DNA from: a phage
DNA length: 64,000 bases
Strand: one strand, 5' to 3'
Sequence record: OZ346222.1
Numbering within the stretch: the stretch's first letter is position 1; each line of letters starts with the position of its first letter. Both the position numbers and the translations under genes were made by a program. The notes beneath the pieces are model-generated. The model was not told the origin of the DNA, did not search any database, and saw only the letters and a list, made by a program, of their open reading frames with translations. Positions 22,159 to 60,830 of the stretch are shown here, piece by piece.

Positions 22159-22171
22159 GGAGACCTTGCCG

Positions 22172-47355: not shown

Positions 47356-47550
47356 GTACTCGATCTGTTTTTCATTTCAAAGACCTGATTTTCTGAAAAT
47401 TTTTCTCGATAAATTTCTTAGTACTCGATCTGTTTTTCATTTCAAAGACCTGATTTTCTGAAAATTTTTCTCGATAAATTTCTTAGTACTCGATCTGTTT
47501 TTCGTTTTCTGAATCGGATTTTCTGGAAATCGTTCCAGCTCTCGACCTGA
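47356..47550. repeat. tandem direct repeat, 65-bp unit, about 3 copies (third degenerate)
   Basis: Unit GTACTCGATCTGTTTTTCATTTCAAAGACCTGATTTTCTGAAAATTTTTCTCGATAAATTTCTTA starts at about 47356, 47421 and 47486 in an ORF-poor AT-rich region; AAATGGAT and GATTTTCTG sub-motifs recur on both sides. Confidence 0.7.
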
Positions 47551-47744
47551 AATTTTTGGGGACGAAATCGATTTTTCGTTTTCAGAAATGGATTTTTAAA
47601 ATTTCTATATGGGAATATTTTATGGGATACTGTTTTATAGGAAATTGTTACGGAGGGTAATTAGCATGCTAATTAAATTTATTAAATGCGAGGAGTTCTC
47701 ATTTAGAATTTTGAATGATAATCATTCTCGTTTGCAGAATAACG

Positions 47745-47767
47745 GGCAGGCCCGGTGATTGTCTCCC
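47745..47767. repeat. conserved 23-nt GC-rich motif, copy A (GGCAGGCCCGGTGATTGTCTCCC)
   Basis: Near-identical copy in inverted orientation at about 57523..57547; related variant CCGGTGGTTGTCTCCCCC at about 47887. Confidence 0.55.
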
Positions 47768-48124
47768 GGCCCCTACTGCCCCGGCTTGTTATTATAGTAT
47801 CACACAGGACAAAGAAAGCAAGGATTTTTTGCATAAATTTTTAAATGATAATGATAACCGTTCTCATTTTATGCAGCGCCCATCCCCGGTGGTTGTCTCC
47901 CCCGTCACCGGTGCCTGCCGTCCTTTCGATAGGTATATCGTGCCACCTGGCGGGGCCGCTGTCAACACTTTTCAAAAAATTTTTCTAACCTGATGCGCTA
48001 ACCGCTGCAACCTGGCGGGGTCAGCCTGGCAGGACCTAACTGACCGGGTAGGAGAGAATGAAGGCTTGTAAACCTGGTGGGCCTATGCTACAGGATAGGT
48101 AACAATTGAAGAGGAGGTACAAAA

Positions 48125-48292
48125 ATGAAAGGTAATATGATCCCCCTAGAAAATGTAGCTATTAATGACGCTGAGGCTATCGCCCTGGTTGAAAAGGCTA
48201 TGGCGGGAGCGTTGGAACATAAAGAAGAGTACGAAAAATGGTGGTTAACCTGGCGGGGGCGGCAGGTGGATTCTATCATAAAAATAATTTAA
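48125..48292 (+). CDS. small hypothetical protein (about 55 aa)
   Basis: ATG 5 nt after strong RBS GAAGAGGAGG; below track cutoff; coordinates hand-counted. Confidence 0.4.
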   Translation: MKGNMIPLENVAINDAEAIALVEKAMAGALEHKEEYEKWWLTWRGRQVDSIIKII

Positions 48293-48301
48293 AATAGTCG
48301 T

Positions 48302-48329
48302 TGACAACAAGGTTAATCATGGTATTATT
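48302..48329 (+). promoter_or_regulatory. sigma70-type promoter
   Basis: TTGACA-16 nt-TATTAT upstream of the 48379 gene. Confidence 0.5.
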
Positions 48330-48378
48330 ACCCTACAAGGTGAACAACACCGCACTAACCAGTAAAGAGGATAAATTT

Positions 48379-48576
48379 ATGAACGCATACGGGATCAAAG
48401 TACGTCGCAACACTCGCCAGGTGGTCACCAATCAAGTGATTTGCCGGGTGGATGTAACCATCAACAACGGGCAAGGCCTTTATAAATTTCGTCGCGGTCA
48501 TAGCTATACCCTGCAACAGCTTAATCGTTGCGCCCTGACAAAAGGTCAGATCAACCATTGGTTTAATAAAAAATAA
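48379..48576 (+). CDS. small basic protein
   Basis: Start at ATG after AAAGAGGA (track ORF from 48301 would cover the promoter); Arg/Lys-rich. Confidence 0.5.
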   Translation: MNAYGIKVRRNTRQVVTNQVICRVDVTINNGQGLYKFRRGHSYTLQQLNRCALTKGQINHWFNKK

Positions 48577-48640
48577 GTATTGACATACAGTCCGACACCA
48601 AATACACTAAAAGCACAAAAGACACTAAGAGGATAAAATC

Positions 48641-49039
48641 ATGAAAACCACTACCTTTAATTTTGATAATGCAGACTTTTCTTTTTCTGATGTCAAGAAC
48701 TGCCGCCGTGATCGTGGATTTTACAAGGCTTATAATCTGGTGGGCCTGGACGATGACAATAATTTGCACGAAGTAGCTGAGATCCGGTATTATGCCGCCG
48801 CCAGCGGTAACACTAACTACTGCGTTTTTTGGATACACGACAACAAGAACAATAAGTACGGTTATACTGGTGGCAAGGCGAGCGGTCACGGTTACGATAA
48901 AGCTAATGCAGCACTTGAGAGCGCATTAAATGCTATGGGGATCACTGCCAACGGCTGGATCTATGAAGAAGAGTTTTTGTCGGCACTTGCTGACCACCTG
49001 GGCTATAAAAAGCACATTGTAACATGCGCCCACGAATAA
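48641..49039 (+). CDS. hypothetical protein
   Basis: 132 aa; RBS AAGAGGA; TTGACA-17-TACACT promoter about 60 nt upstream. Confidence 0.55.
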   Translation: MKTTTFNFDNADFSFSDVKNCRRDRGFYKAYNLVGLDDDNNLHEVAEIRYYAAASGNTNYCVFWIHDNKNNKYGYTGGKASGHGYDKANAALESALNAMGITANGWIYEEEFLSALADHLGYKKHIVTCAHE

Positions 49040-49121
49040 AAATTGTTGACACGCTGCAAAATTCAAGTAAACTAGTCACAAAAGGCGGGAATGTTTCCCG
49101 CCAACACAAAGGAAAAAGATC

Positions 49122-49526
49122 ATGAATAAGAACGTACGCCGCATCATGAACGAACTGGCAAACGATGAAAAAATTATTGACATGCATTTGATCAACATTT
49201 GCCGCCGTTGTGTAACATACAACAACCGCGCCGCAAAAGCGCGTGAGATGAACGCAAAAGGCACCTTAAAGCCATTCCAGGTGGTGGTAAAGGCCATTAA
49301 AGATGTAACTAATACGGCAAACCAGGTACAGGGGAACACCAACGAGAGTACCAATATTGATCCGGCTTACATCATGAAACGGATCCGGACCTGCAAGAAC
49401 AAAGAGCAAGTGTATAATGTCATAGACTGGTTGGATTCTATGGGCGATGTGGTGTACAATAGATTCTCGGCAGCTATTGAGATCCAGCTTGACAGGTTAG
49501 ACGGTAAAGTACTTAAAACTTACTAA
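49122..49526 (+). CDS. hypothetical protein
   Basis: 134 aa; promoter TTGACA...TAAACT, leader hairpin GGCGGGAA-TGT-TTCCCGCC, CA-rich spacer, RBS. Confidence 0.55.
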   Translation: MNKNVRRIMNELANDEKIIDMHLINICRRCVTYNNRAAKAREMNAKGTLKPFQVVVKAIKDVTNTANQVQGNTNESTNIDPAYIMKRIRTCKNKEQVYNVIDWLDSMGDVVYNRFSAAIEIQLDRLDGKVLKTY

Positions 49527-49537
49527 ATTTATTTTTA

Positions 49538-49561
49538 GATGGCCTTGACTCCAGGGCCATC
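49538..49561. promoter_or_regulatory. dyad-symmetric element GATGGCC-N10-GGCCATC with TTGACT in the spacer (copy 1 of 3)
   Basis: Part of a roughly 44-nt block TTATTTTTAGATGGCCTTGACTCCAGGGCCATCAATAAAGTAAA repeated at about 50159 and 53897, each directly after a gene stop. Confidence 0.5.
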
Positions 49562-49726
49562 AATAAAGTAAATTAATCTCAGCTAAGCGAAAAAGGGGGC
49601 TTTAAGATGAGCACTACACGCCAATACACAAAGGTAACTATTATCGCCTGCGTTGTCGGTTACATCCTGGCGCAAATGTTAATGAGTAGCGCTAACAGTT
49701 TTGCAAAATTTTTCTTAAATTTTTAA

Positions 49727-49754
49727 TTGACAAGCTAACTTAGATTGATATACT
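49727..49754 (+). promoter_or_regulatory. sigma70-type promoter
   Basis: TTGACA-16 nt-TATACT, followed by leader hairpin GGGAA-AAC-TTCCC and CA-rich spacer. Confidence 0.5.
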
Positions 49755-49805
49755 TAAACACGTAAACGGGAAAACTTCCCAGAACACACAAAAGGAGAAA
49801 ACACC

Positions 49806-50147
49806 ATGACTACTATGGCCGCCGCAGAAAAAGCTATTCAGATCGCCGCACTGAAAAAACAGATCGCAGACCTTGAGAACAAGATCGATAACTTTGAAAT
49901 CGACGAGGACAAGTACGACGAAAACTATGATGAATGGTTAGACGAGATCTACGGCGAAATTATGATCGGAAACATTTCTTTTCTTCCGTCGCGTATCCTC
50001 AAGGAGCTAGATCCTATCGCTTACCGCTGCGGATTTAGCGACTACATCGACAGCCTGGATATTGAGGACGATGAAGAATACCAGGAATTACAGACAGAGT
50101 TAGAAGAAGCAAAAGAAGAGCTTGCAGAACTGGAAGAAAACGAGTAA
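49806..50147 (+). CDS. highly acidic coiled-coil protein
   Basis: 113 aa, strongly Asp/Glu-rich; RBS AAAGGAGAAA. Confidence 0.55.
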   Translation: MTTMAAAEKAIQIAALKKQIADLENKIDNFEIDEDKYDENYDEWLDEIYGEIMIGNISFLPSRILKELDPIAYRCGFSDYIDSLDIEDDEEYQELQTELEEAKEELAELEENE

Positions 50148-50158
50148 GATTATTTTTA

Positions 50159-50182
50159 GATGGCCTTGACTCCAGGGCCATC
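50159..50182. promoter_or_regulatory. dyad-symmetric element GATGGCC-N10-GGCCATC (copy 2 of 3)
   Basis: Identical to copy 1 including flanks. Confidence 0.5.
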
Positions 50183-50236
50183 AATAAAGTAAACTTTATA
50201 CTGTTAACACTGAACTAATGCATAGGAGTTAAAACC

Positions 50237-50482
50237 ATGGCAGCACTAATCACCAAATATTATGCCCCTACCAACACCAAAAGCGCCCGTATCATGGTAA
50301 AAGGCTTCGGACGTAAAAAGGTGTACACCTGGGATTATGCCTTAGACACGGAAGACAACTACACCAACGCGATGACCGATTTTATTAATGATCTGAACAC
50401 GCGGATCTTGACAAATTATAAAATTACCGATATTGCCTATATAGGGGAAGGCGGGATCTGTTTTGTCGGTATCGTCAAATAA
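50237..50482 (+). CDS. small hypothetical protein
   Basis: 81 aa; RBS TAGGAG. Confidence 0.5.
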   Translation: MAALITKYYAPTNTKSARIMVKGFGRKKVYTWDYALDTEDNYTNAMTDFINDLNTRILTNYKITDIAYIGEGGICFVGIVK

Positions 50483-50557
50483 GCTGTTTTTTCGGTGGTC
50501 CTGGTAGCAGGGCCATCTATAAAGATAGTTTATCAATACAATGAAAGGAGAAAGTAC

Positions 50558-50911
50558 ATGATCAGCGGGGCAAGTTTTATTATTGGCGCTATTGCTACGG
50601 CTTTAATTGTAAACAAGATCCAATCTAAAAACGAAAAAGATAGCAACGCCCTTACAGAATACCCGTTTTGGGTATTCAACGACAATGAAGACTATATTAT
50701 CAAGTACAAGAATGAGAAGGGCGACCAGGTAACACCGCGACCGATCCCGGCTTACAAGATGCAAGAAACACTATACCGCCTAAAGGCTGGAGGCGCAAAA
50801 ATCGTAGACTTTTGGGGATACGATCACACAGATCAGGAAGTTATAAAGCGCCGTATCCGGGCTATTCAGGCCAATATTGAAGTTAGCAAGGGGGGAATAT
50901 ATGAAGATTAA
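50558..50911 (+). CDS. membrane-anchored protein
   Basis: Start at ATG after AAAGGAGAAAG; N-terminal hydrophobic span (ASFIIGAIATALIV). Confidence 0.5.
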   Translation: MISGASFIIGAIATALIVNKIQSKNEKDSNALTEYPFWVFNDNEDYIIKYKNEKGDQVTPRPIPAYKMQETLYRLKAGGAKIVDFWGYDHTDQEVIKRRIRAIQANIEVSKGGIYED

Positions 50912-51098
50912 TTTTGAGAAGATTGTAAAGCGATCTCATGCTTCCGAAGAGCTGCCGGAACGCCGCCAGCGCAACAATAAACTGAATAAGCCAAAAAGAT
51001 TTGGGAAGATCTGGCGGAATCATTATGATCGCAAATTACCGGGCCTGCTTTTGGAACGTGAACGACAGGCGGAACGATACCGCCACAAAGGCAAATAA
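50901..51098 (+). CDS. small basic protein
   Basis: Start at internal ATG of track ORF 50877..51098 after a G-rich RBS; Arg/Lys-rich; followed by terminator. Confidence 0.45.
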   Translation: MKINFEKIVKRSHASEELPERRQRNNKLNKPKRFGKIWRNHYDRKLPGLLLERERQAERYRHKGK

Positions 51099-51106
51099 CA
51101 ACCAAC

Positions 51107-51137
51107 GCCCCGCCATTGTGCGGGGCTTTTTATTTCT
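51107..51137 (+). terminator. rho-independent terminator
   Basis: GCCCCGC-CATTGT-GCGGGGC hairpin followed by TTTTTATTTC. Confidence 0.6.
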
Positions 51138-51279
51138 ATCCTACGAATAGCGCCCCTGGTTGGCCCTGTAAGCGCCAAAAAGGCCCCACCTATGCAATCG
51201 CCCACCTTTAACCTGAAAACATCGCTTAGGGCCGTTTTATGGCGTTAAAAATATCATTGACAGTGATTTTATTTAAAGC

Positions 51280-51308
51280 TTGACATCTTAAACAGGTTAG
51301 CTATACTA
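51280..51308 (+). promoter_or_regulatory. sigma70-type promoter with AT-rich upstream element
   Basis: TTGACA-16 nt-TATACT with A/T-rich upstream sequence and a second TTGACA about 22 nt upstream. Confidence 0.5.
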
Positions 51309-51341
51309 ACCACATCAAAGAGAGAGAAAGGAGTAAACGCC

Positions 51342-51602
51342 ATGCGTAAATTAAAAAATTTTGATAAAGTTGATGTTGTCCTGAATAATTTTTACTACTG
51401 CAACAACAAGGCCATTTGGTGGCGTGATAGTTCCACCGATAAAGTCAAGGCGCGCTTTCTCCAGGGGCACTGGCAAGGCCGCCCAGTGATTAAAATCATG
51501 GGGCAATTGGTAGCGTTTAAAAATTGCCGCCGTGTTGATGACGTTGAAGAGATCTTGAATATTTTACGCCACAATAATTTAAAAAATAGTGTTGACAAGT
51601 AA
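51342..51602 (+). CDS. hypothetical protein
   Basis: 86 aa; RBS AAAGGAG. Confidence 0.55.
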   Translation: MRKLKNFDKVDVVLNNFYYCNNKAIWWRDSSTDKVKARFLQGHWQGRPVIKIMGQLVAFKNCRRVDDVEEILNILRHNNLKNSVDK

Positions 51603-51620
51603 ATCTCAATAAGTATACTT
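51592..51620 (+). promoter_or_regulatory. sigma70-type promoter
   Basis: TTGACA-16 nt-TATACT, then hairpin GGCGGGAA-GTT-TTCCCGCC, CA-rich spacer and RBS. Confidence 0.5.
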
Positions 51621-51676
51621 AAGCACACAGGCGGGAAGTTTTCCCGCCACTAACAAAGAAAATAGGAGAAAATATC

Positions 51677-52300
51677 ATGACCACCGTTAACATTACCACA
51701 GGTTGCAATTTATCTTTCGACGTGCTGACCGACGAACAAAAAGAAAAAGCTGTTGAAATGGTCCGCGAAAGAGAAGAACACAGCGGGGATAACTTTTTTG
51801 CAGAAAGTGTAATTGAATACTATAAAGAATATGTTTTTCCAGAGTACGGGCTTGAAGATACCAAGGTACAGTGGTCCGGCTTTTGGTGTCAAGGCGACGG
51901 CGCATCAATTAGCGCTGAAAATGTAAACTTAGAAAAATTCTTGCGTAAGGTTAAAGCGCTTACAAAATTTCGCTCAATTAGACACTTGTTCGGCACAATG
52001 CACGATGGCGAACTATCAGCCAGCGTTGAACGTATCCCGTTTAGCCATTATCATCACGAAAACACAATAGGCGGGTGCATCGATACCAACTGGCTAGACC
52101 TGACCACCAAGCAAGAGGATAAAATTGAAGAGCTGGAAGAGCTGATCACCGAGACGGTACGGGAGCTATCCCGCAAGGTTTACGTAGACCTGGAGCAGGC
52201 CTATCTTGAACAATTCACTACCGAAAACCTGATCGGCCTTATCGAGGCCAATGATTGGCGGTTTGATGTGGATGAGTATGGCGAGATGACTTTTTCATAA
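51677..52300 (+). CDS. hypothetical protein
   Basis: 207 aa; RBS TAGGAGAAAA. Confidence 0.55.
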   Translation: MTTVNITTGCNLSFDVLTDEQKEKAVEMVREREEHSGDNFFAESVIEYYKEYVFPEYGLEDTKVQWSGFWCQGDGASISAENVNLEKFLRKVKALTKFRSIRHLFGTMHDGELSASVERIPFSHYHHENTIGGCIDTNWLDLTTKQEDKIEELEELITETVRELSRKVYVDLEQAYLEQFTTENLIGLIEANDWRFDVDEYGEMTFS

Positions 52301-52389
52301 ATAAAGTGTTGCAATAACCTAAAAACCTGCTATATTAAAACTCAAGGGGCAAGACGTTTGCCCCCACACAAAACAAAGAGGAAAACATC

Positions 52390-52770
52390 ATGAAAAACAC
52401 TACTAAAGCTATTGACACCGTTATGTTTAACCTGGTTACCTTTCGCGAGGATATGAAAGATCTTCCACGTGAAACAGTGTGCGATCACATTGAAAACTAT
52501 CGCAAACTAATCAAAGAGTTGCCTTTAAAACGTGACCAGTATGCGGCTAACGCCATGCTTAATGCCATGATCAAAAAGATGATTCAGTGTGATTTAACTC
52601 TGGCCTATGACTATGCGGGTGGTCGTTTTGCAGTATACAATCAGCCCGTGCCCGGTATGGGCACCACCGAAGAATTGCACGCGCTCAATCTAAAACAAGA
52701 CGTATGGGATAACATGCCCCGCGTGGTGGTGTGGGCAGAAAGCGGAAAGATTTACGGCGATAATTTTTAA
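52390..52770 (+). CDS. hypothetical protein
   Basis: 126 aa; promoter TTGCAA...TATATT, hairpin GGGGCAA-GACG-TTGCCCC, CA-rich spacer, RBS AAAGAGGAAAA. Confidence 0.55.
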   Translation: MKNTTKAIDTVMFNLVTFREDMKDLPRETVCDHIENYRKLIKELPLKRDQYAANAMLNAMIKKMIQCDLTLAYDYAGGRFAVYNQPVPGMGTTEELHALNLKQDVWDNMPRVVVWAESGKIYGDNF

Positions 52771-52780
52771 TCAGGTAACA

Positions 52781-52810
52781 GGCGGCATATTTGCCGCCTT
52801 ATTGTTAAAC
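52781..52810 (+). terminator. rho-independent terminator
   Basis: GGCGGCA-TATT-TGCCGCC hairpin followed by TTATTGTT. Confidence 0.5.
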
Positions 52811-52834
52811 AGAGTTGCAAAAGAGGTACATAGA

Positions 52835-53206
52835 ATGGAATTTATTATTTTGGCTGTAGTAGTTGCCTTGTTCAACGCCTGGATCGCTGGCAAGATGGGT
52901 AGATCCGCCTTTTTATGGTTTATTATATCTATTTTCCTGGGGGTGGTTGCAACTATTGTACTTGTTATCCTTGCAATTGTTGACAAGGGGAATAATAGAA
53001 AGGGTAAAGTATTTTCAGACCTGTACGACGCTCAAACGTTTGTCAACGCCTATTATAGTGATCTTCCAGTCTCCCTACGCTGCAGCCTGGCACAACAAGT
53101 TTTCGATGAGGCTAAAACCAGAGATCAAGCCCATGAGATATGTTTAACTGAGGCGGATCGCCTATTTGAGAGGAATAGAAAATATGTGGGCCAACCGTTT
53201 AAATAA
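52835..53206 (+). CDS. membrane protein (two predicted TM helices)
   Basis: Start at ATG after AAAGAGG; hydrophobic spans FIILAVVVALFNAWIAG and FLWFIISIFLGVVATIVLVILAIV. Confidence 0.5.
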   Translation: MEFIILAVVVALFNAWIAGKMGRSAFLWFIISIFLGVVATIVLVILAIVDKGNNRKGKVFSDLYDAQTFVNAYYSDLPVSLRCSLAQQVFDEAKTRDQAHEICLTEADRLFERNRKYVGQPFK

Positions 53207-53429
53207 TGCCACGTTAATTAATCCCTTTAGTGAAGATTTGAAGCCAGCCGCCTGGCGTGATGGATTCAATAACGAACGCTTTATTTTCAAGCCTGATCTT
53301 GAGGAATTTTATAACAATGGATCGAACAACAGCGGAGATAATTTTTCTTGGGATGTGCGTGGTGATGGTACTCCTGGGGGCCATTGTAAACCACGTCACT
53401 ACTACCAGGAGGAAAGAGGGAGACGATGA
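53184..53429 (+). CDS. small hypothetical protein
   Basis: Start at ATG after GAGGAA; overlaps upstream gene end by about 23 nt, so start is uncertain. Confidence 0.4.
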   Translation: MWANRLNNATLINPFSEDLKPAAWRDGFNNERFIFKPDLEEFYNNGSNNSGDNFSWDVRGDGTPGGHCKPRHYYQEERGRR

Positions 53430-53545
53430 CAACCAAGGATAAGCCCCGTACCGATAAGGCGCGCCGGGTTATGGTATGGCTTGAGATCATCGCCCTTGAA
53501 ATATTGCTAGGCGTAGGGATGTACTTTATCGCTGTAAGTAACTAA

Positions 53546-53580
53546 GAGCGGCCCCCGATCATGGGGGCCTATCTTTTAAA
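53546..53580 (+). terminator. rho-independent terminator
   Basis: GGCCCCC-GATCAT-GGGGGCC hairpin followed by TATCTTTT. Confidence 0.6.
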
Positions 53581-53683
53581 AAATTTTTCTTCCGGGGTGT
53601 TGCAATCCGGTCCGGAATGTGGATAATAACAATCAACGGGGAGCTAATCCCCACCACCACAAAAACCAGAAAGGAGAAACAAA

Positions 53684-53884
53684 ATGAGCAACAATATCCG
53701 CGTTATTAACTTCAAAAAAGAAGAAAAAATTGCCGTGCTGATTGACGGTCAAGAAATCTTCAAGGGCGACTATGAAGATCATCAAACGGCGATTAGTATC
53801 ACTCGCGTGATTGGTTATCATAATTTCTACCCCCAAGGCGCTGAGGCAGCAGTTAAACGAATCAAAGAGATTGTAGGCCTGTAA
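53684..53884 (+). CDS. small hypothetical protein
   Basis: 66 aa; promoter TTGCAA-17-ATAATA, hairpin GGGGA-GCTAA-TCCCC, CA-rich spacer ACCACCACAAAAACC, RBS AAAGGAGAAA. Confidence 0.55.
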   Translation: MSNNIRVINFKKEEKIAVLIDGQEIFKGDYEDHQTAISITRVIGYHNFYPQGAEAAVKRIKEIVGL

Positions 53885-53896
53885 AATTTATTTTTA

Positions 53897-53920
53897 GATG
53901 GCCTTGACTTCAGGGCCATC
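53897..53920. promoter_or_regulatory. dyad-symmetric element GATGGCC-N10-GGCCATC (copy 3 of 3)
   Basis: Two substitutions relative to copies 1-2 (TTGACTTCAG, CGATAAAG); directly after the 53684..53884 stop. Confidence 0.5.
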
Positions 53921-53977
53921 GATAAAGTAAATTTAAACCCTGTTAAAATACCACGCAGTTAACAAGGAGTGATAGAC

Positions 53978-54277
53978 ATGTTTATCCAGGCTAATAATCT
54001 TTATTTCTTTGATGGTCAGATCGTAGATGGTGTGGAAGTGGAGATCACCGGGTGCCCTGGCGGTCAGGCTATGACTTTTCGGAATAATGCCTTTGATGAT
54101 TCTCATATCGTTATGAGAATGGAAGTTACGAAGCTGGACGACAAGAAAACACTTATTGACTATTCTGTGAAAGATCATCCAGACTACCGCATGATCCATG
54201 GTGATTTGTGCATTGTTGACCGTGACAAGGTGGGCGGCATTGTGATCGCTATTGTGAACGATGTTTTCTCAAACTAA
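53978..54277 (+). CDS. hypothetical protein
   Basis: Start at ATG after AAGGAG (track ORF from 53969). Confidence 0.5.
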   Translation: MFIQANNLYFFDGQIVDGVEVEITGCPGGQAMTFRNNAFDDSHIVMRMEVTKLDDKKTLIDYSVKDHPDYRMIHGDLCIVDRDKVGGIVIAIVNDVFSN

Positions 54278-54294
54278 TTTCAGCAGGCGATTTT

Positions 54295-54645
54295 ATGAAA
54301 GTCAAACTATATTACCTTAATGAGCTTAACCCCCTTGCCCAGGTCCGCGCCCTAGCTAATACCTTGATTTGTGAGAAATCTGTATATTGTGTTGAGCTTA
54401 ACGCCATGCGTGAACGTCTCAAAGGTGGTTACTTTGACATCCATGCTGCAATCAACGGCCTGAATATGGAATTTATACGCTTACGTAACAGCCGCCGGAA
54501 TCTGGCAAGAATGGAACAAGATCCGGCCCACCTTCGTAAGCTGGTTATTGAAAATCATCTGATGTTTAATGCCGAGGGTGATTATTACCATTTTCACCGC
54601 AAACGCTGGTACCGTGGCGGCAATACAGGCAAGAATGCAAAATAA
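54295..54645 (+). CDS. hypothetical protein
   Basis: 116-aa ORF; weak RBS. Confidence 0.45.
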   Translation: MKVKLYYLNELNPLAQVRALANTLICEKSVYCVELNAMRERLKGGYFDIHAAINGLNMEFIRLRNSRRNLARMEQDPAHLRKLVIENHLMFNAEGDYYHFHRKRWYRGGNTGKNAK

Positions 54646-54847
54646 GGCCCCTAGCAGGGCCTGCAGCAATATAATCACATAAAGGCCATGCGGTTGCATG
54701 GCCTTTATTATTTTGGCGTTACAACGGCATACGGGGCGCTTAAAAAATTTTTAAAGAAGTACTTGCATCATTCCCGACAATATGGATAATAAGAGTTGTC
54801 GAGGGGGAGGCCCCCAATCGTTGACCAGATAGATAGGAGTTAAAATC

Positions 54848-55132
54848 ATGGCTATTGTTACCGCTGGCGATGTAGTAGAAATGGAAGCAAAATACTTAAA
54901 AGCGGGTATGCACATCCTACGGAATGATCAAGAGCTATTATTAACGATGGTTGACTATAATCACGGCCAGGATTATCCAAGCATCGACTACTTTTTTGAG
55001 TATGTTGATGAAGAGTTGAAAGAGGATGAGGCCTATTGCGGTGAGTTCTGCAACTTCTTTTGTCCTGATGAGGTTGTAAAGGTTATTTATCAACCTGGCG
55101 TAGCTTTCCCGCTGCACGCTATCAATAAATAA
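54848..55132 (+). CDS. hypothetical acidic protein
   Basis: 94 aa; promoter TTGCAT-17-ATAATA, leader hairpin GGGGGAGGCCCCC, RBS TAGGAG. Confidence 0.55.
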   Translation: MAIVTAGDVVEMEAKYLKAGMHILRNDQELLLTMVDYNHGQDYPSIDYFFEYVDEELKEDEAYCGEFCNFFCPDEVVKVIYQPGVAFPLHAINK

Positions 55133-55187
55133 ACCTGGCGGGGCCGAAAAGGCCCCCAATTATGAAAATAAAGAGAGGCAAATCATC

Positions 55188-55421
55188 ATGATGGAACAAA
55201 TTAAACGCGCCGAGGCTATTAATGGCAACGTGATCTATTTTGTCAGCAAAAACGAAAAAGGCGTACCATATGCGGCAGTAATAGTACAACCTGACGGCGA
55301 TTATTGGTTTACTGTGTACGGCGCTTATTCTTTTGGGCGTCCAGTGCATGATAAAATTTTGAAAGTAGCGAACCCTACCGGGAAGAATATCACAGCAGAA
55401 AAATTTTTTGAAAATAGTTGA
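55188..55421 (+). CDS. small hypothetical protein
   Basis: 77 aa; RBS AAAGAGAGG. Confidence 0.5.
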   Translation: MMEQIKRAEAINGNVIYFVSKNEKGVPYAAVIVQPDGDYWFTVYGAYSFGRPVHDKILKVANPTGKNITAEKFFENS

Positions 55422-55446
55422 CATGACCATATAAGACTGTAATATA
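55418..55446 (+). promoter_or_regulatory. sigma70-type promoter
   Basis: TTGACA-16 nt-TAATAT, then G/C hairpin, CA-rich spacer and RBS. Confidence 0.5.
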
Positions 55447-55497
55447 TAAATCAAAGGGGGCAACGAACCCCACCAACTACAAAGAGGATAAAAATCA

Positions 55498-55677
55498 TGG
55501 CTATTATTGCAAAGACTGAGATCATAGGCTTAGATTCTATTCTCCTCGCATATGAGGAAGCTATAGAAATGTATGTGGTTTCCTATGGTGAGTATATCCG
55601 TGAATATAAATCTATTGATCTGGCTTTTGAATGTTATATCCGCCAGGTTAATAAAGCGTACGATGATTATCGTTAAA
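55498..55677 (+). CDS. small hypothetical protein (about 59 aa)
   Basis: ATG after AAAGAGGATAAAAATC; below track cutoff; coordinates hand-counted. Confidence 0.45.
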
Positions 55678-55682
55678 ATAGT

Positions 55683-55711
55683 TTGACAACAGCCATCTTA
55701 CAAAGCATAAT
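55683..55711 (+). promoter_or_regulatory. sigma70-type promoter
   Basis: TTGACA-18 nt-ATAATA, then hairpin GGCGG...CCGCC and RBS. Confidence 0.45.
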
Positions 55712-55763
55712 ACATAAGGCGGTGGAATGGTCCGCCACCTGGAACAAAGAAGAGGTAAACACC

Positions 55764-56009
55764 ATGAAAAGCAATAAAGGTTATAACGGTTACAAAAACA
55801 AAACTCATTGGAATGTAAGCCTTTGGATTAATAACGATGAGTCATTGTACCGGTTGGCCCAAGGCTTTATTAACGCCAATGCTAATCGTAATGATGCGGC
55901 GCGGGATATGATGCTTTTTCTGGAGCTAACCGGACAAGATAAGACCCTGGACGGCTTCAAGTACAGCACTACGGCGATCCGTGCCGCGATGGTTGGAATG
56001 AAACACTAA
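55764..56009 (+). CDS. small hypothetical protein
   Basis: Start at ATG after AAAGAAGAGG (track ORF from 55683 would cover the promoter). Confidence 0.5.
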   Translation: MKSNKGYNGYKNKTHWNVSLWINNDESLYRLAQGFINANANRNDAARDMMLFLELTGQDKTLDGFKYSTTAIRAAMVGMKH

Positions 56010-56200
56010 AAGCACATAGCTGCCTTACCCTGGGGCTGTGGTAGCGGCCCCATGAATAAGGTTACTAACAGAAGAGAATAAACACCATGAAACAGAAATT
56101 AATCGATGCAGTGATCTTGGTTATTGCCCTGGGTATTGGCCTGATTGCAACCATGTCTAATATGATCTTGTCTTCCAACGGTATCGGGTGAGGTTGGCAA

Positions 56201-56416
56201 ATGATCACTAACAAAACAGGCAAAACGGAATTTTTACGCAACTTACAGATCGGCAAGCCTGAGATCTGGTACTGCACTAAAACACCGCGTGACGAAATGA
56301 AAGACTTCACCGCCACGCTGCAACGGGTAAAGATATCTATCACGCAGAAAAAGGCCTTACTAGTGGTGGAAGGGGAGATCCCCCAAACCGTTGTTATAGT
56401 TGATCGTACAGCATAG
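56201..56416 (+). CDS. small hypothetical protein
   Basis: 71-aa ORF; weak RBS. Confidence 0.45.
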   Translation: MITNKTGKTEFLRNLQIGKPEIWYCTKTPRDEMKDFTATLQRVKISITQKKALLVVEGEIPQTVVIVDRTA

Positions 56417-56507
56417 TTTAATTTATACAGATACCTGAAAATTAACCAACAAAGCATAAACAGGCGGTTACCGCCGCCTTAAACGTAGCAGAAAGAGGAT
56501 AGGCACA

Positions 56508-56792
56508 ATGAAAAAGATGATCGCAGTGGTTACCCTGGTTGTTGGACTTAATGCGCCTGTAATGGCTAAAGAGCTGGCAAAAGAGGTTAATCTAACGGAT
56601 ATTCATGCCGTCAATCAAATCGGGGTTACTTATCGCTTATGCCTTGCCGCTAAAACTTTTAAGGACGGCACAACAGAGTACTACGGATTCGAGGGTATCC
56701 GGTGCGGTGAGCTTGCTCGCGACCTTAAGGAAGATCCAGACCTGGAGGATCTGCCCATAACCGTGAACGGGAAAACTTACGTGAACCGTTAA
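56508..56792 (+). CDS. small secreted/periplasmic protein
   Basis: 94 aa; N-terminal signal peptide MKKMIAVVTLVVGLNAPVMA; RBS AAAGAGGATAGG. Confidence 0.55.
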   Translation: MKKMIAVVTLVVGLNAPVMAKELAKEVNLTDIHAVNQIGVTYRLCLAAKTFKDGTTEYYGFEGIRCGELARDLKEDPDLEDLPITVNGKTYVNR

Positions 56793-56937
56793 CCATGAGA
56801 AAGATAATTATTACCATGGGGATCGTGGCGGCAATGTTGGCGATCTTTCCCTTTATGGTTAGGTATGTGCTGATTAATGTTGTCCTGGTAGTCAGCGATC
56901 TGGTGTTATATATTAACTCATTGTTTTAGGCGCGATA

Positions 56938-57129
56938 ATGACAGCGGAAGAAGTTAAAAAAGTACTGGCGGTACTGCGTTATCATAATCATTGCAAGGTG
57001 AAGAATGATCCTGATTATCTTGATTCATCCCTTGAAGAGGATACACTACAAGCCATAAGCAACATGCAAGAATTGCTTAAGCGTATGACAGAGAAAAACC
57101 GACCGGACTACATAGGGGGTAAAATATGA
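56938..57129 (+). CDS. small hypothetical protein
   Basis: 63-aa ORF. Confidence 0.45.
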   Translation: MTAEEVKKVLAVLRYHNHCKVKNDPDYLDSSLEEDTLQAISNMQELLKRMTEKNRPDYIGGKI

Positions 57130-57437
57130 TCGCTATTACGCCAACCGTTTTAGATTGGTATCGGCAACGCATAGCGCCTCCGCTGGCTATCTTCAAAGAT
57201 GCGGAAGCAAAACAACGCCGGATCTCAATACATGAGATCATCAACCTTAACGCTGGAGGCACACCATACCGCCCAGGACCTGGCCGTGAGATGGACAATA
57301 CATTGGCGATCCTGAAGATACGCCGTAAACGGTCCTCCCTTACGCTGGATTCATTACACACAATGCAGTCTCCGTTCCAGGTGACTGGGAAACGGATCGC
57401 CAGGTCCTGGACAAAGGCCAATGACCGGACCGTATAA
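57126..57437 (+). CDS. hypothetical basic protein
   Basis: 103 aa; ATGA overlap with upstream gene; preferred over the overlapping minus-strand ORF because it continues the co-directional coupled gene series. Confidence 0.45.
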   Translation: MIAITPTVLDWYRQRIAPPLAIFKDAEAKQRRISIHEIINLNAGGTPYRPGPGREMDNTLAILKIRRKRSSLTLDSLHTMQSPFQVTGKRIARSWTKANDRTV

Positions 57438-57522
57438 ATAAAAAGTGTTTTGGTACTGATTTTGGGGTTGACTTGTTCGGCCCCTTTTGCTATTCTTATT
57501 AAACGGGCGGCACTTGGGAACA

Positions 57523-57547
57523 GGGGGAGACAATCACCAGGCCTGCC
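57523..57547. repeat. conserved 23-nt GC-rich motif, copy B (inverted relative to copy A at about 47745)
   Basis: GGGGGAGACAATCACCAGGCCTGCC is the reverse complement of GGCAGGCC(C/T)GGTGATTGTCTCCC at about 47745. Confidence 0.55.
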
Positions 57548-57572
57548 TGTCATATAAGAACTATAAAAACCG

Positions 57573-57601
57573 TTGACATCTGCCAGGGGGTGGGGTAACA
57601 T
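57573..57601 (+). promoter_or_regulatory. sigma70-type promoter
   Basis: TTGACA-17 nt-TAACAT, then hairpin GGGCA...TGCCC, CA-rich spacer CACACAACAACC, RBS. Confidence 0.5.
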
Positions 57602-57655
57602 TTATCTTGAAGGGGCAAAGGTGCCCACACAACAACCAGAAGAGAGGAAAACACT

Positions 57656-57928
57656 ATGTCAAGCTGGATTAATCAAGAAGTCGAATCACGTTTTAATGCT
57701 ATTTGGGATCTCATCGAAAAAGAAGACGGCACATCAAGCCCCTACCTCAACAATTTGGAATTCCATTTTGTGGAAGCGATGAACGCAGAACATGATCACG
57801 AAGGTGGTGCGGACGAGTTCGCTAAAGGGTATGGCTTCAACAATGCCAACGAAATGATCGAGGCGGTTGTACTCCAGGCTGAGGAAGATTATCAATTAAA
57901 AACGCTTGAATTCTGCCGCCGCAAGTAA
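57656..57928 (+). CDS. hypothetical acidic protein
   Basis: 90 aa; RBS AGAGAGGAAAA. Confidence 0.55.
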   Translation: MSSWINQEVESRFNAIWDLIEKEDGTSSPYLNNLEFHFVEAMNAEHDHEGGADEFAKGYGFNNANEMIEAVVLQAEEDYQLKTLEFCRRK

Positions 57929-57988
57929 TAAGATAATGACACGGGCCGGGAGGCCCACTAATCAGAACCACACAAAGAGGTAAACATC

Positions 57989-58252
57989 ATGAAACGTCTT
58001 GATCAGCTTAAACTAGTTCAGTACATGGCCTACAAAGTTCTTGAAGTCCAAAAAGGTAGCAAAAAAGAGGTTTGCGAGAAAGCGTACAAGATCTTTACCC
58101 GTAAAAAAGATGATTGGATGTTACGCCAGACCAAAAAAGCCGATATCTTGGGGTACCTGGAAGAAGAGATCCGACTTGAAGAGCAAGAAGAGATCCGCCG
58201 CAGTGAGGCAGATTATCAGGCAGCCTGGGAAAACTGGATGAGCAACAAATAA
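57989..58252 (+). CDS. hypothetical protein
   Basis: 87 aa; leader hairpin GGGCC-GGGA-GGCCC, CA-rich spacer, RBS AAAGAGG. Confidence 0.55.
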   Translation: MKRLDQLKLVQYMAYKVLEVQKGSKKEVCEKAYKIFTRKKDDWMLRQTKKADILGYLEEEIRLEEQEEIRRSEADYQAAWENWMSNK

Positions 58253-58319
58253 TACAACAAGTTGCACGATCAGGGGGCAATAAAGCCCCTTGATCACATA
58301 AAAATTATGCTATCCTTGG

Positions 58320-58348
58320 TTGACAAGGATCGGCAGTTTTGCTATATT
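58320..58348 (+). promoter_or_regulatory. sigma70-type promoter
   Basis: TTGACA-17 nt-TATATT upstream of the 58397 gene. Confidence 0.5.
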
Positions 58349-58396
58349 CTTTTTGAAGGGAAGTTGTAAGAAAATTAACTAAGAGGTAAAAACACC

Positions 58397-58816
58397 ATGA
58401 ACATTAAATCTAATAATCCGGCATATAGCTTTGATAACGCTTTTTGTCACGGTCCGGCGGCGAAAGGATTCGAAATCGATGGTAAACTAATTATTGTCAA
58501 TGTTGACGGGGAAGAGGTTGCAGTATATCCGGTGGCAGACGTAAAAAGCCGTTTACAATGCCGCATGGATGTTACCGCCTATCAGCTTGATCCGGTCCGC
58601 ATAGTTGCCCTGGTCCTGGAAGAAGAAATTAAAGCCATGCACCATAGCAACAGATTTATTGGTGACGCGCAGGATAATATGAAAGTATGCCGCCATAAAG
58701 TTAATGAAGTGCTTAAAGAGTACGGCTATAAAGATCTTATGATCAAACGTGAGGAAAAATTCCGCTACCGTAACGACCTGGCAAATCGGATTTTTGAAAT
58801 ATACGAATCATTATAA
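58397..58816 (+). CDS. hypothetical protein
   Basis: 139 aa; RBS TAAGAGG; followed by terminator. Confidence 0.55.
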   Translation: MNIKSNNPAYSFDNAFCHGPAAKGFEIDGKLIIVNVDGEEVAVYPVADVKSRLQCRMDVTAYQLDPVRIVALVLEEEIKAMHHSNRFIGDAQDNMKVCRHKVNEVLKEYGYKDLMIKREEKFRYRNDLANRIFEIYESL

Positions 58817-58832
58817 TTTTTTAACTGAATTA

Positions 58833-58860
58833 TCAAGGGGCTTAGGCCCCTTTCTTTTTG
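58833..58860 (+). terminator. rho-independent terminator
   Basis: AGGGGC-TTAG-GCCCCT hairpin followed by TTCTTTTTG; closes the rightward small-gene block. Confidence 0.6.
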
Positions 58861-59299
58861 TCTGCTCTTCCCCCTACCATAAACGGCCCTACCTGGCAAG
58901 TGGAATAATTGACGAGCCATCAATCCCACACACTGTACAAATATACATGTAAAATAACTATTGCATAACCTTTCATTGTGTGGTAGCGGTGCTATTTTTT
59001 ACCTGTTTTCCTTCCAAAATTGCACGTAATGCAGCTATTGCACAAAATTTAACCTGATGCACATCTCCAATATCCTGTCAACAACTAAAAATCTTTATAA
59101 GTCATACACTTACACAGCATCGAAAGCGTGTTCTACGCGAAAAATCGAGTATAACTATAGCCGCCAGATCTCAGAATTCACGTACGCACGCCATTCTATA
59201 GCCTGCAAAGTATTTATTCCAACCACAGAATAACGGAATAGTCAATACCTGAATAAAATAATTATTCGTTTAAACTGCATAACATAAATCAGCTCAGGT

Positions 59300-60830
59300 G
59301 TCAACATTTTTCGTAAACAGTCTGAAATTGTCACTGTGAGTTATCATAAACAGAGAAATCTTTAGTCGTATAATGTTTACTGTACGTTACTATACTGACT
59401 GGAATCATTAGATGACTAATAGAAAGATAAGAAATAATTAACAATACAATTATTTTACCTGTAACAATAAGACAACTATGCAAACGAATGGCATGGCGCG
59501 ACGGAGTCGCGACATAATATAAAAGCAGTAACCATCACCCCCGTGATGGTTTGTCTGCAATCTATTAATCAGATCATAGTTGCCTTGTATTCAGTTAATC
59601 ATGACATAATAAGCAAGGCAACTATAGATCTGCTAATAGTTGCCCTGCTTTTATATTATGTCATATATTATTAACTTGTTAATTGTTAACTTGCTAATTG
59701 TTTTCATGCAAACGAATGTCATGGCTTATCCTATCTGTGTAAACAGTTAAGGTGTAAACTATCCAGGCGTAAACAGTCTATGCGGGAACAATCTATACGT
59801 GAACAGTGAAACATGAAATAATAACAGTCGTTATTGTGTCGAAAGTGTATAAGGTGTCAGACAAGTTTTTCTCCTCTTTGTCAAGTGCTGCATGAAAAAT
59901 TTACAAGCTTGTATGGTAGCATTTTTGCGGCCCTGTTTACATTCAGCGATGTATGTATAATCCTTGTTGTGTGGGCGTTTAGACGTCTAGACGGTCAGAA
60001 GTCTGCAGGTTAATACCTAATCTATCGGCTGCTAACTATATCCCACACAAATAGTAAGAAATATAATTGTTATGTGCGTAAACAGTAACTCATGTTATCA
60101 ATCCCTGTATGTATCGCCAGTGGTGCGCATAATGGGTATTATGTTAAATTGCCCGTAATGATAACTATTCTCACAATGATAGGTATTCTCATTCACTCCC
60201 ACAAGATAGGTTGCAAATGTTGTGCCACTGTGTGAACGGCCTAACCTATTAATTTGCCTCACTGCCTCGATATTTGAGAATTGTTATAAGAATGAGAAGT
60301 ATTCCCATTTCGTCCGCCTGGCAGCACTCCAGTCGCTACCGCTCATGACAGGGCAGAACTAGACCCTCTTCAGATATTTCTGGCTGACTCTTCAGGTCTG
60401 TGTGGGAAAAGCCAACCTCTCCGGCGGCGGGGAGGGGGTCAATTAAAAAAAATTACGTGGTGCATGAAGCGCTCTTCAGGTAAGGCATGTGTTATGGGAT
60501 GAAACCCTCTTCAGGCAATGATATTTGTGGGTGTGATATTTGCTGGAAAGCCAGATATGACGGGACTCCTGGCGGGGCAGGGGTAGTACAGACAGGGAAA
60601 ATATGGGGGATGTAGTTGGGGAAATTGATCAGACAGGTAGAGTATGGAATATGTTACAAGTATGTTAAATAGGGAGGATGAATATCTGCAGGATTTGTGT
60701 GTAAAATCAAAGACTTAAGTGGTGTTGTGGTATTTTCTATAAATAATTCAAGTTTAATAGGTAATATTTGTCTCTATCCACTTTGTGTGGTAAACAGATT
60801 CAGATGAAATTGGTTTACAAGTGTATACAT
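59300..60830. repeat. iteron-like dispersed repeats (GTAAACAG family) and palindromes in an ORF-free region
   Basis: At least 7 copies of (G)TAAACAG in both orientations, five within about 90 bp near 59.74-59.83 kb; 12-bp inverted repeat ATAGTTGCCTTG/CAAGGCAACTAT near 59.58-59.62 kb; TGCAAACGAATG(G/T)CATGGC twice. Confidence 0.55.

Follow-up and report, generated by a model that had tools for sequence, protein, structure and literature searches.

In Escherichia coli, 5'-terminal stem-loops of the ompA 5' UTR type stabilise mRNAs. Other promoter-proximal RNA elements, such as nutL and nutR of lambda or putL and putR of HK022, serve in antitermination. Among sites of host regulators, the classical Fur box is 19 bp long, GATAATGATAATCATTATC, and the corresponding 7-1-7 motif reads TGATAATnATTATCA. 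The closest analogue of the locus described here is a pair of inverted untranslated repeats in the left terminal repeat of phage T5 (IRC-spacer-IRD, IRD'-spacer-IRC'), which lie in the first-step-transfer region and are a candidate injection stop signal (Davison, bioRxiv 10.1101/866236).

We analysed a 64,000-nucleotide stretch of phage DNA (OZ346222.1, hereafter the window) from an rV5-like Vequintavirus. Phages of this type are in wide use in collections for therapy and biocontrol, but how their early region is controlled has hardly been studied. A sequence-only reading of the window had pointed to a 23-nt motif with a distant inverted copy differing by one C/T substitution, and to a related variant at about 47887. 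All three could be located: the 23-mer GGCAGGCCCGGTGATTGTCTCCC is matched exactly at 47745-47767 (+), its reverse complement occurs at 57525-57547 with one mismatch (C to T), and the variant is a third copy of a 16-nt core, CCGGTGRTTGTCTCCC, at 47886-47901 (+). Chance would predict none of the three: in 100 dinucleotide-preserving shuffles, not one 23-mer match turned up at up to three mismatches. A generic repeat finder lets the inverted repeat grow to 29 nt at 90% (47739-47767 / 57525-57553, 9757 nt apart), and in a three-copy alignment homology spans about 100 nt, well past the 23-mer. Every copy forms the core of a roughly 130-nt module and is read as GGGAGACAAYCACC; it sits 10-60 nt downstream of a sigma-70-type promoter, within a G-rich hairpin about 50 nt long, in which GGGAGACAAYCACC...TGCC makes up the loop and 3' arm. 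The 23-mer is the loop and 3' arm of this promoter-proximal hairpin, part of a larger module and not a free-standing site.

Features of the early block and of the three module copies (window coordinates)
Feature	Position	Strand	Description
Early block	48125..59233	+	About 26 small genes with sigma-70 promoters; many leaders begin with a short GC-rich 5' stem-loop
65-nt tandem repeats	47356..47550		Lie downstream of the leftward modules, in AT-rich DNA (26-36% GC)
Copy 1	47745..47767	-	Reads GGGAGACAATCACCGGGCCTGCC; apical and 3' part of hairpin c1 (~47742-47787)
Copy 2	47886..47901	-	Reads GGGAGACAACCACCGG; inside hairpin c2 (~47872-47918)
Copy 3	57525..57547	+	Reads GGGAGACAATCACCAGGCCTGCC; inside hairpin c3 (57503-57550); nhmmer E = 1.1e-9
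P_c1, promoter-like	47794..47821	-	TTGCTT (47821-47816), 16-nt spacer, TACTAT (47799-47794), TGn extended -10; leftward into copy 1; read from sequence
P_c2, promoter-like	47937..47965	-	TTGACA (47965-47960), 17-nt spacer, CACGAT (47942-47937); leftward into copy 2
P_c3, promoter	57468..57496	+	TTGACT, 17-nt spacer, TATTCT, TG before -10; called by promoter/terminator scan
Fur-box-like operator 1	47712..47730		Perfect 15-bp palindrome GAATGATAATCATTC; ~65 nt downstream of the inferred P_c1 start
Fur-box-like operator 2	47847..47865		GATAATGATAACCGTTCTC; 16/19 of GATAATGATAATCATTATC
Second cluster, four Fur-like boxes	60159..60307		In the 2.3-kb non-coding region right of the block

The orientation of the modules follows the borders of the early block, for which the rV5 genome paper annotates neither the promoters nor the module. 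Copies 1 and 2 stand in tandem at its left edge and point leftward, out of the block, reading into a 1-kb non-coding AT-rich region with repeats. The leftward transcripts predicted from them have no evident product, and the ORF called across both copies (rV5 ORF198, bas57_0099) is not a gene, a warning for annotation. Copy 2 is a tandem paralogue, found in this analysis only in Vequintavirus sequences. Copy 3 points rightward, 1.7 kb short of the block end and ahead of the last four early genes. The earlier claim that the motif brackets the small-gene block needs one correction, at the right edge: copy 3 lies inside the block and is followed by four small + strand genes (57656-59233).

Upstream of the motif, in the G orientation, lie predicted sigma-70 promoters with hexamers spaced 16-18 nt apart and conserved in relatives. 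A promoter-like element (TTGnnn, 16-18 nt, TAnnnT) was found just upstream of all 28 module instances, and 19 of the 28 have a score of 9/12 or higher, compared with about 5% of random windows. In the relatives the hexamers are conserved while the spacers diverge. P_c1 was missed by the promoter scan because it scores 8/12; relatives have TTGCAA-17-TATATT, TTGACA-16-TATTAT and similar elements at the corresponding place. P_c2, also uncalled, scores 9/12 in the window, and its rV5 counterpart, TTGACA-17-CACAAT, 10/12. The -35 hexamer of P_c3 falls in the loop of a preceding terminator-like hairpin (57464-57484), and the start predicted for this promoter, at about 57503, would be the first base of hairpin c3.

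The sequence-only reading had allowed for a common element scattered throughout the genome. In the closest relative, MaxTheCat, the complete 135-kb genome holds exactly three modules, and the correlation with block boundaries that had been anticipated in relatives was recovered at the early-block edges of six genera: Vequintavirus, Certrevirus, Seunavirus, Mydovirus, Henunavirus and Phapecoctavirus all carry the inverted pair, 7-10.7 kb apart. Copy 3 also retains its neighbouring gene: in CR3, KaOmega and CR9 it directly follows the homologue of ORF 57126-57437. A right-hand copy was not detected in phiTE, ChuuTotoro and W70, and that of SSE121 is a weak match only (E = 0.25), oriented like copy 1 and located beyond the block. 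Other genera have conserved leftward genes upstream of copy 1, so that leftward transcription at this border is real in those genera. The block is collinear in 60 of the 60 records covering at least 80% of the region. Block and inverted pair are ancestral to Vequintavirinae and Phapecoctavirus, and the non-coding module is better conserved than the genes around it.

The evidence for an RNA structure is of moderate strength. At all three copies, the fold of the G strand is more stable than that of the C strand by 3.5-4.5 kcal/mol: hairpin c1 (fold of 47736-47790) reaches -21.6 kcal/mol on the - strand against -18.1 on the + strand, hairpin c2 reaches -20.1 kcal/mol on the - strand, and for hairpin c3 the values are -17.5 kcal/mol (+ strand) and -13.0 kcal/mol (- strand). 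Single-sequence folds were not significantly better than shuffles (z ~ -1.3 to -1.4). Across relatives, 85.4% of outer-stem cells are paired among 18 sequences and 81.0% among 35, compared with 77.1% and 71.5% on the opposite strand; the stem contains 38 G·U cells versus 13 A·C cells, about three to one. The inner stem is paired in 54%. Covariation is weak, with one to three pairs altered on both sides and no significance in shuffle controls, and RNAalifold found no consensus structure on the MAFFT alignment. The covariance model R1 scored 44.5 bits for copy 1 (- strand, 47735-47791) and 16.2 bits for copy 2. A structured model trained on the other genera gained 5-7 bits for the held-out Vequintavirus copy 1, and copy-3-type sequences had no gain from structure (-3 to +2 bits). 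The most invariant positions belong to the primary sequence (ACAAnCACC, TGCC) and would fit a protein-binding DNA site equally well. Rfam 15 gave no match over the modules, either at gathering score or at E up to 5, and ARAGORN found no tRNA.

The third component of the module is a set of predicted Fur boxes, recognised by similarity to the 19-bp consensus or to the 7-1-7 motif. Our search pattern, TGAGAATNATTCTCA, is a variant of the latter; operator 1 differs from it at two positions (TGATAATCATTCTCG at 47716-47730, 13/15) and agrees with the classical consensus at about 15/19 by eye. Operator 2 is the sole 16/19 match to the consensus in the window, with 0.02 expected. In total the window holds 13 Fur-like boxes where 4.6 would be expected, and they cluster at 47.4-47.9 kb and at 60.2-60.3 kb; MaxTheCat holds 11 against 2.35 expected, nine of them in or beside the block. 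Such a box follows the hairpin at copies 1 and 2 and, singly or in greater number, in most genera; in relatives the boxes form tandem arrays, and at copy 3 in Vequintavirus the box has been lost. Exact box copies are found in many unrelated phage contigs, as would be expected for the site of a host factor.

Taken together, these features lead us to propose a paralogous non-coding module, with the 23-mer as its conserved core, made up of a host sigma-70-type promoter, a hairpin and, usually, one or more Fur-like operators. The hairpin would begin within a few nucleotides of the transcription start, with the G-rich strand as the transcribed strand, and at the RNA level it may be a 5'-terminal stem-loop with a stabilising or regulatory role. 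It would share its design with the shorter 5' hairpins of the other early leaders, nine of 16 early promoters in the block being followed by a GC-rich 5' stem-loop. Host Fur would bind the boxes and link these transcripts to iron status. The motif looks like a long-range inverted repeat because transcription of its copies would run outward, in opposite directions. Our best guess, to which we give roughly even chances, is a leader hairpin close to the promoter of outward transcripts and coupled to host Fur. A regulatory role at both ends of the block is plausible, which keeps part of the earlier suggestion of regulator sites at both ends, with the difference that the 23-mer is only a portion of a larger promoter-hairpin module.

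The inverted arrangement can be read in several other ways. Convergent promoters might produce an antisense RNA under Fur control, a system that low iron would switch. In this scheme a promoter in the GGCAGG orientation, TTGAAT-18-CAGAAT, coincides in part with a Fur box and gives rise, from the hairpin base, to a C-rich RNA. This RNA would be antisense to the G-strand transcript of its own module and, given the inverted arrangement, would also be complementary to 23-29 nt of the leader at the other block end. A Fur-like box indeed spans the -35 to -10 interval of this element in copy-1-type modules of eight genomes, and a + strand RNA over copy 1 would pair with the + strand copy 3 leader over 29 nt at 90%. 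We nevertheless judge the scheme unlikely: the element has a score of just 8/12, a level attained by about 16% of random windows, Certrevirus copy 3 lacks it (5-6/12), and the outer stem, whose 3' arm reads CCCGCUAU, accounts for its invariant GAAT equally well. A transcript from copy-3 sites would enter early genes in antisense, and the excess of G·U over A·C favours the other strand. Bidirectional intrinsic terminators insulating the early block would account for GC-rich hairpins in intergenic DNA, and in the phiTE record a terminator is annotated within copy 1; however, the scan called none of the three copies, no T run follows the stem on either strand (post-stem sequences CGGCTTGTTATT, GTTATTCTGC and TGTCATATAAG), a promoter rather than a gene end precedes each copy, and real terminators lie nearby at 47074-47104 (by eye) and 57464-57484 (scan), which makes this reading very improbable. 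The sequence-only reading had also listed recombination, either as scars of a moron-like inserted accessory block or as ends of an invertible segment. Only the geometry, inverted copies about 9.8 kb apart, speaks for it. The synteny check against the 60 near-full-coverage records revealed an inversion in none of them, no annotated product in or beside the block was noticed to be a recombinase, six genera conserve both the pair and the block and have one and the same gene ahead of copy 3, and the homology takes in promoters and operators instead of short crossover cores. Both forms are rejected, as none of the relatives listed shows an inverted block and the block is ancestral; we leave them hardly any probability.

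A further possibility is that the core and its arrays of host-protein boxes act on double-stranded DNA as a boundary or anchoring element, be it a replication origin primed by transcription into the AT-rich repeats or a genome-entry stop or tether delimiting the terminal early domain, comparable to the injection stop signal proposed in T5. Several observations are in its favour: the invariant positions lie in sequence rather than structure, two tandem promoters face the 26-36% GC stretch with its 65-nt repeats, and G clusters occupy the non-template strand just past the starts. In Hena1, about 1 kb separates the end of the block from a direct terminal repeat of 519 bp, the KPP-1 repeat being 514 bp (PMC9862379), and the distance from the left modules to the non-coding region holding the Hena1 repeat is an estimated 12-13 kb, about 9% of the genome, against 7.9% for first-step transfer in T5. 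T5 also has conserved inverted untranslated repeats with DnaA boxes around variable pre-early genes (bioRxiv 10.1101/866236), and daunorubicin sensitivity is common to Vequintavirinae and T5-like phages (bioRxiv 10.64898/2026.01.13.699316). On the other side, 47.1-48.1 kb shows no DnaA-box cluster and no GATC enrichment, the Bas54 region reported as intolerant of transposon insertions is another, 2-kb intergenic region (bioRxiv 10.1101/2025.11.20.689424), and in Vequintavirus another promoter and gene come directly after copy 3. For Vequintavirus genomes, possible headful packaging has also been reported (PMC13211470). We give an action at the DNA level a small chance of being right. Its more specific form, in which modules and Fur-box clusters would be cis-acting boundary elements of a terminal early domain via host Fur, like the DnaA-box repeats proposed in T5, or else iron-gated transcription-primed origins, strikes us as quite unlikely.

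A non-coding module with three sites per genome, better conserved than its surrounding genes, near both edges of the host-takeover block and accompanied by putative sites of a host iron regulator, is probably a real control point. Were the boundary or origin reading true, a host iron sensor would be built into the early-infection architecture of a whole phage subfamily. The questions raised are whether outward non-coding transcripts are made, whether iron status or Fur affects early infection, and whether the 10-kb terminal block is a separate domain as in T5.

Compared with known systems, the module hairpin resembles the ompA type in offering a stable stem within a few nucleotides of the predicted 5' end, a design common to many early leaders in the block; unlike it, the hairpin is far larger, at about 50 nt, its loop sequence is invariant, and two of the three copies would head non-coding transcripts. 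Like nut and put sites, the copies are paralogous elements that come soon after early promoters firing in opposite directions, and hence are inverted in the genome. They differ in hairpin geometry, in belonging to two transcription units without a shared divergent control region, and in that no N-like factor was identified; with no boxA (YGCTCTTWA) in 46.5-62 kb of the window, they do not class as nut-type sites. As at Fur-repressed promoters, the boxes are palindromic, with consensus matches of 16/19 and about 15/19, but they lie at about +65, downstream of the better-supported promoter and not over it. The T5 modules are 131 bp long, carry DnaA boxes and lie inside a 10-kb terminal repeat, whereas those described here carry Fur-like boxes, a promoter and a hairpin and have no sequence similarity to them; 46.5-62 kb contains only two DnaA-box matches, neither in a module, and no ordered arrays of the T5 type. 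We know of no two-step DNA entry in rV5-like phages. The resemblance to T5 is one of layout only, inverted conserved untranslated modules around early genes near a genome end. In both cases, a large virulent coliphage has, in its terminal early region, conserved non-coding modules that stand inverted with a few kb between them, carry arrays of predicted sites for an abundant host DNA-binding protein, with a function that is a proposal in either phage, and bracket variable small early genes that they outlast in conservation.

Megablast matched the region 47000-58500 to 309 phage records, rV5 among them, the best matches being Escherichia phages MaxTheCat and AlexBoehm (95% identity, 99-100% of the query), so the window is part of an rV5-like Vequintavirus genome. 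In rV5, MaxTheCat and isim, a series of some 25-35 small hypothetical genes, all on the same strand and driven by sigma-70 promoters, matches the stretch at 48.1-59.2 kb, which is the early, host-takeover block. To its left lies about 1 kb devoid of credible genes (47.1-48.1 kb), and to its right a non-coding region of about 2.3 kb (59.2-61.5 kb). Homologues in other genera were found by tblastn for only 5 of the 14 window ORFs tested in and beside the block, and literature searches returned no Vequintavirinae transcriptome.

The sequence-only reading had noticed a GC-rich 23-mer bracketing this block as an inverted pair, with a related variant close to the left member. This observation holds and is well beyond chance: the 23-mer (copy 1) recurs as its reverse complement with one mismatch (copy 3), against 0 matches in 100 shuffles; a generic repeat finder lists the two as an inverted repeat of 29 nt at 90%; and the variant is a third, weaker copy (copy 2). 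The left copies do lie at the edge of the block, but copy 3 is not its right border, as four more small genes lie beyond it. The motif looks inverted because copies 1 and 2 point left and copy 3 points right.

In low-stringency blastn the similarity spans some 65-75 nt at copy 1 and 54-84 nt at copy 3, with 77-89% identity in distant relatives (GAP31, CR3, CR9, SSE121, phiTE, Mydo, Hena1 and phAPEC8-like phages). Related loci were drawn from IMG/VR using the adjacent palindrome as anchor, and the region was also fetched from twelve annotated phages. HMM and covariance model searches yielded 28 instances with enough flank to score, and all 28 share one anatomy, in the orientation GGGAGACAAYCACC: a -35 element TTGnnn, a 16-18 nt spacer and a -10 element TAnnnT; about 7-12 nt before the hairpin; a hairpin some 50 nt long and rich in G, its 5' arm pairing with the conserved 3' arm ...TGCC(C/T)G(C/T)TAT; and, for the majority of genera, ATTCYG and then one to four AATGAGAATGATTMTCATT-type palindromes in tandem. 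Promoter hexamers are kept between genera while spacers vary, and the promoter scores at least 9/12 in 19 instances versus about 5% of random windows. This module is a conserved promoter-hairpin-operator unit, whose function we infer, and is not previously described as far as our literature and database searches reached.

Features of the window and of related loci (window positions unless a locus is named)
Feature	Position	Strand or direction	Description
Inverted repeat	20305-20331 / 22169-22195		perfect, 27 nt, arms 1.8 kb apart
Group I intron	38468-38703		Rfam RF00028, 64.7 bits
Tandem repeats	47356-47550		65 nt; two identical copies and one or two degenerate; 26-36% GC
Left Fur-like cluster	47394-47866		TGAGAATnATTCTCA-like sites
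Palindrome AATTAGCATGCTAATT	47660-47675		perfect, 16 bp
Fur-like site	47712-47730		contains perfect 15-bp palindrome
Annotated ORF	47715-47993		ORF198 (rV5), bas57_0099 (MaxTheCat); spans copies 1 and 2
Copy 1	47745-47767	leftward	23-mer as read on +
P_c1, promoter of copy 1	47821-47794	-	TTGCTT-16-TACTAT with TGn; weaker; read from sequence
Fur-like box	47847-47865		16/19 to classical Fur box
Copy 2	47886-47901	leftward	weaker variant
P_c2, promoter of copy 2	47965-47937	-	TTGACA-17-CACGAT; weaker; read from sequence
-35 in terminator loop	49525-49574, 50146-50195, 53884-53933, 57464-57484		examples
ORF preceding copy 3	57126-57437		
P_c3, promoter of copy 3	57468-57496		TTGACT-17-TATTCT; called by promoter scan
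Copy 3	57525-57547	rightward	reverse complement of the 23-mer, one mismatch
Right non-coding region	59230-61500		2.3 kb; six or more each of GTAAACAG-like and CTCTTCAGG motifs
Right Fur-like cluster	60159-60307		four boxes
GGTCGGAAGGTGGATCGCCGGTAGTTCG... stretch	L151 ~2180-2330; equivalents in L152, L153, L155		~110 nt, GC-rich, non-coding
ATGCAAAATAGTGAATATGGCGAGATCTCCG stretch	L152 11360-11440; L155 8600-8680; L156 9385-9460		~30 nt, non-coding

The sequence-only reading had proposed a scar of a moron-like insertion, an invertible segment or a regulator acting at both ends, and named a motif common genome-wide as the outcome that would refute it. That outcome was not seen: in the complete MaxTheCat genome the module is confined to three sites, with nhmmer giving E = 9.3 for its next match and the covariance model finding the same three. 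A left copy with an inverted right copy 7-10.7 kb away occurs in Vequintavirus, Certrevirus (CR3, CR9, KaOmega), Seunavirus GAP31, Mydovirus, Henunavirus and Phapecoctavirus, and the generic repeat finder independently recovered the pair in CR3 (33 nt, 85%) and Hena1 (58 nt, 74%). Since a homologue of ORF 57126-57437 directly precedes copy 3 in three Certrevirus genomes, the copy 3 site is orthologous. Together with the collinearity of the block in all 60 records covering it, this distribution rules out an invertible segment and also a scar left by a recent insertion. The earlier interpretation is thus partly right, in that the motif marks a regulatory element connected with each end of the early block. 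In other genera, small leftward-strand genes are conserved just upstream of copy 1, namely GAP31_044 / Mydo_055 (61-64% amino-acid identity) and a second family, ABPW7_256 / W70_21 / phiTE_079, so leftward transcription at that border is real in those genera. HMM and covariance model searches detected no right-hand copy in phiTE, ChuuTotoro or W70, and SSE121 has only a weak match (E = 0.25), oriented like copy 1 and lying beyond the block.

IMG/VR scans anchored on Fur-box 18-mers and on the loop added just three further module instances. The 16-mer CYGGTGRTTGTCTCCC gave about 120 matches there, nearly all in one unrelated prophage coding sequence and attributable to chance; useful loci from it were limited to L075, L088 and L132. 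Two non-coding stretches absent from the window were also seen in relatives: GGTCGGAAGGTGGATCGCCGGTAGTTCG..., just upstream of the copy-1 promoter, conserved across non-Vequintavirus genera and matching no Rfam family, and ATGCAAAATAGTGAATATGGCGAGATCTCCG, a conserved stretch that GAP31, Mydo and Hena1 carry beyond copy 3.

Evidence that the G strand, on which the hairpin is read, gives a structured RNA is moderate. The fold is better on this strand by 3.5-4.5 kcal/mol at each window copy, with z only about -1.3 to -1.4. In the 8-bp outer stem (e.g. AUAGCGGG / CCCGCUAU), 85.4% of cells are paired across 18 sequences and 81.0% across 35, versus 77.1% and 71.5% on the opposite strand, with 38 G·U cells versus 13 A·C. 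One to three of its pairs changed on both sides (A-U, G·U, G-C), with shuffle controls not significant, and the inner stem, 54% paired, is without support. A structure-aware model trained without Vequintavirus gained 5-7 bits at copy 1 and 3.8 bits at copy 2, and nothing for copy-3-type sequences, whose 5' arm differs in build. Because MAFFT leaves the 5' arms out of register, RNAalifold found no structure in its alignment of 32 copies. The most invariant columns, ACAAnCACC and TGCC, are primary sequence, and the module may thus be a protein site on double-stranded DNA.

Several other identities were discarded. The module has no U-tract, was not called by the terminator scan and has its promoter ahead of the hairpin, which speaks against a terminator. 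Searches with Rfam and ARAGORN revealed neither a known RNA family nor a tRNA, so the coordinates of the tRNA-Met and tRNA-Ile features annotated over the module and Fur box in OY978796.1 (L003, 1493-1646) are apparently misplaced. A host origin was dismissed (0 matches in 5,426 E. coli genomes). A ribosome-binding-site mimic was suggested by the resemblance of GGAGACAAACACC to the phage's own leaders, and was dropped because the leader consensus varies by genus while the motif is constant. An RfaH ops element (8/12 in one contig) and a G-quadruplex (four G tracts, copy 1 only), both spotted by eye, are unconserved. The ORF that annotations place over copies 1 and 2 is very unlikely to be a gene, judging from substitutions spread 13/12/18 over codon positions and from in-frame stops and frameshifts in relatives.

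The 16/19 Fur-like box is the sole such match in the window, where 0.02 are expected; sites within three mismatches of TGAGAATnATTCTCA number 13 versus 4.6 expected and cluster in the two non-coding regions flanking the block, and in MaxTheCat 9 of 11 lie in or beside it. Copy 3 has such a box in distant genera and has lost it in Vequintavirus. Over 140 unrelated IMG/VR contigs (loci L005-L030, L157-L275) contain exact 18-mers of the box (TGAATGATAATCATTCTC, ATGAGAATGATTCTCATT), sometimes as tandem arrays, and only a handful of these contigs match the module model; this spread fits a host-factor site rather than a phage-specific operator. Literature searches found no report of Fur boxes in Vequintavirinae phages, and Fur sites may be a common, little-noted trait of phage genomes. 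A convergent promoter under Fur control, producing an antisense RNA, is improbable and ranks below the promoter-hairpin-operator reading: the box lies at about +65 from the better-supported promoter, and the opposite-strand element it overlaps is weak (8/12, missing at some copies), its invariant GAAT doubling as the 3' arm of the outer stem. The palindrome AATTAGCATGCTAATT, located between the repeats and the Fur-like boxes, is near-identical in close relatives, with 1 nt differing in rV5 and isim.

A replication origin or DNA-entry-stop element is suggested by the tandem promoters facing an AT-rich repeat region and by the Hena1 terminal repeat, which adjoins the block and has a counterpart of similar size in KPP-1 (PMC9862379); in T5, inverted untranslated repeats with DnaA boxes bracket variable pre-early genes (bioRxiv 10.1101/866236). 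These points are suggestive, but neither DnaA boxes nor GATC are enriched (nor is boxA), and the insertion-intolerant region of Bas54 is the other intergenic region (bioRxiv 10.1101/2025.11.20.689424). By position, the right non-coding region appears to correspond to that Bas54 region without tolerated transposon insertions and to the site of the 519-bp Hena1 terminal repeat. On the left, many relatives' alignments start at 47420/47421, the junction of two 65-nt repeat copies, which may reflect one repeat copy fewer. Elsewhere in the window, the group I intron lies, by coordinate offset, within the DNA polymerase gene, for which the MaxTheCat annotation gives a joined CDS, and the 27-nt inverted repeat, with an ATG and an identical codon run in each arm, suggests two divergent genes sharing identical N-termini.

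The module hairpins start 0 to about 5 nt from the inferred transcription starts. Among the 16 other early promoters of the block (49046-58348), 9 are likewise followed, at about +5, by a short GC-rich 5' stem-loop, and then by a CACACAA-type linker and a Shine-Dalgarno sequence. The modules appear to be a more elaborate, conserved subclass of this phage's usual leaders. In several early promoters the -35 sits within the loop of the terminator hairpin before it. Stem-loops at the 5' end shield RNA from 5'-end-dependent decay in E. coli; as a working mechanism, the module hairpin would protect its transcript in the same way.
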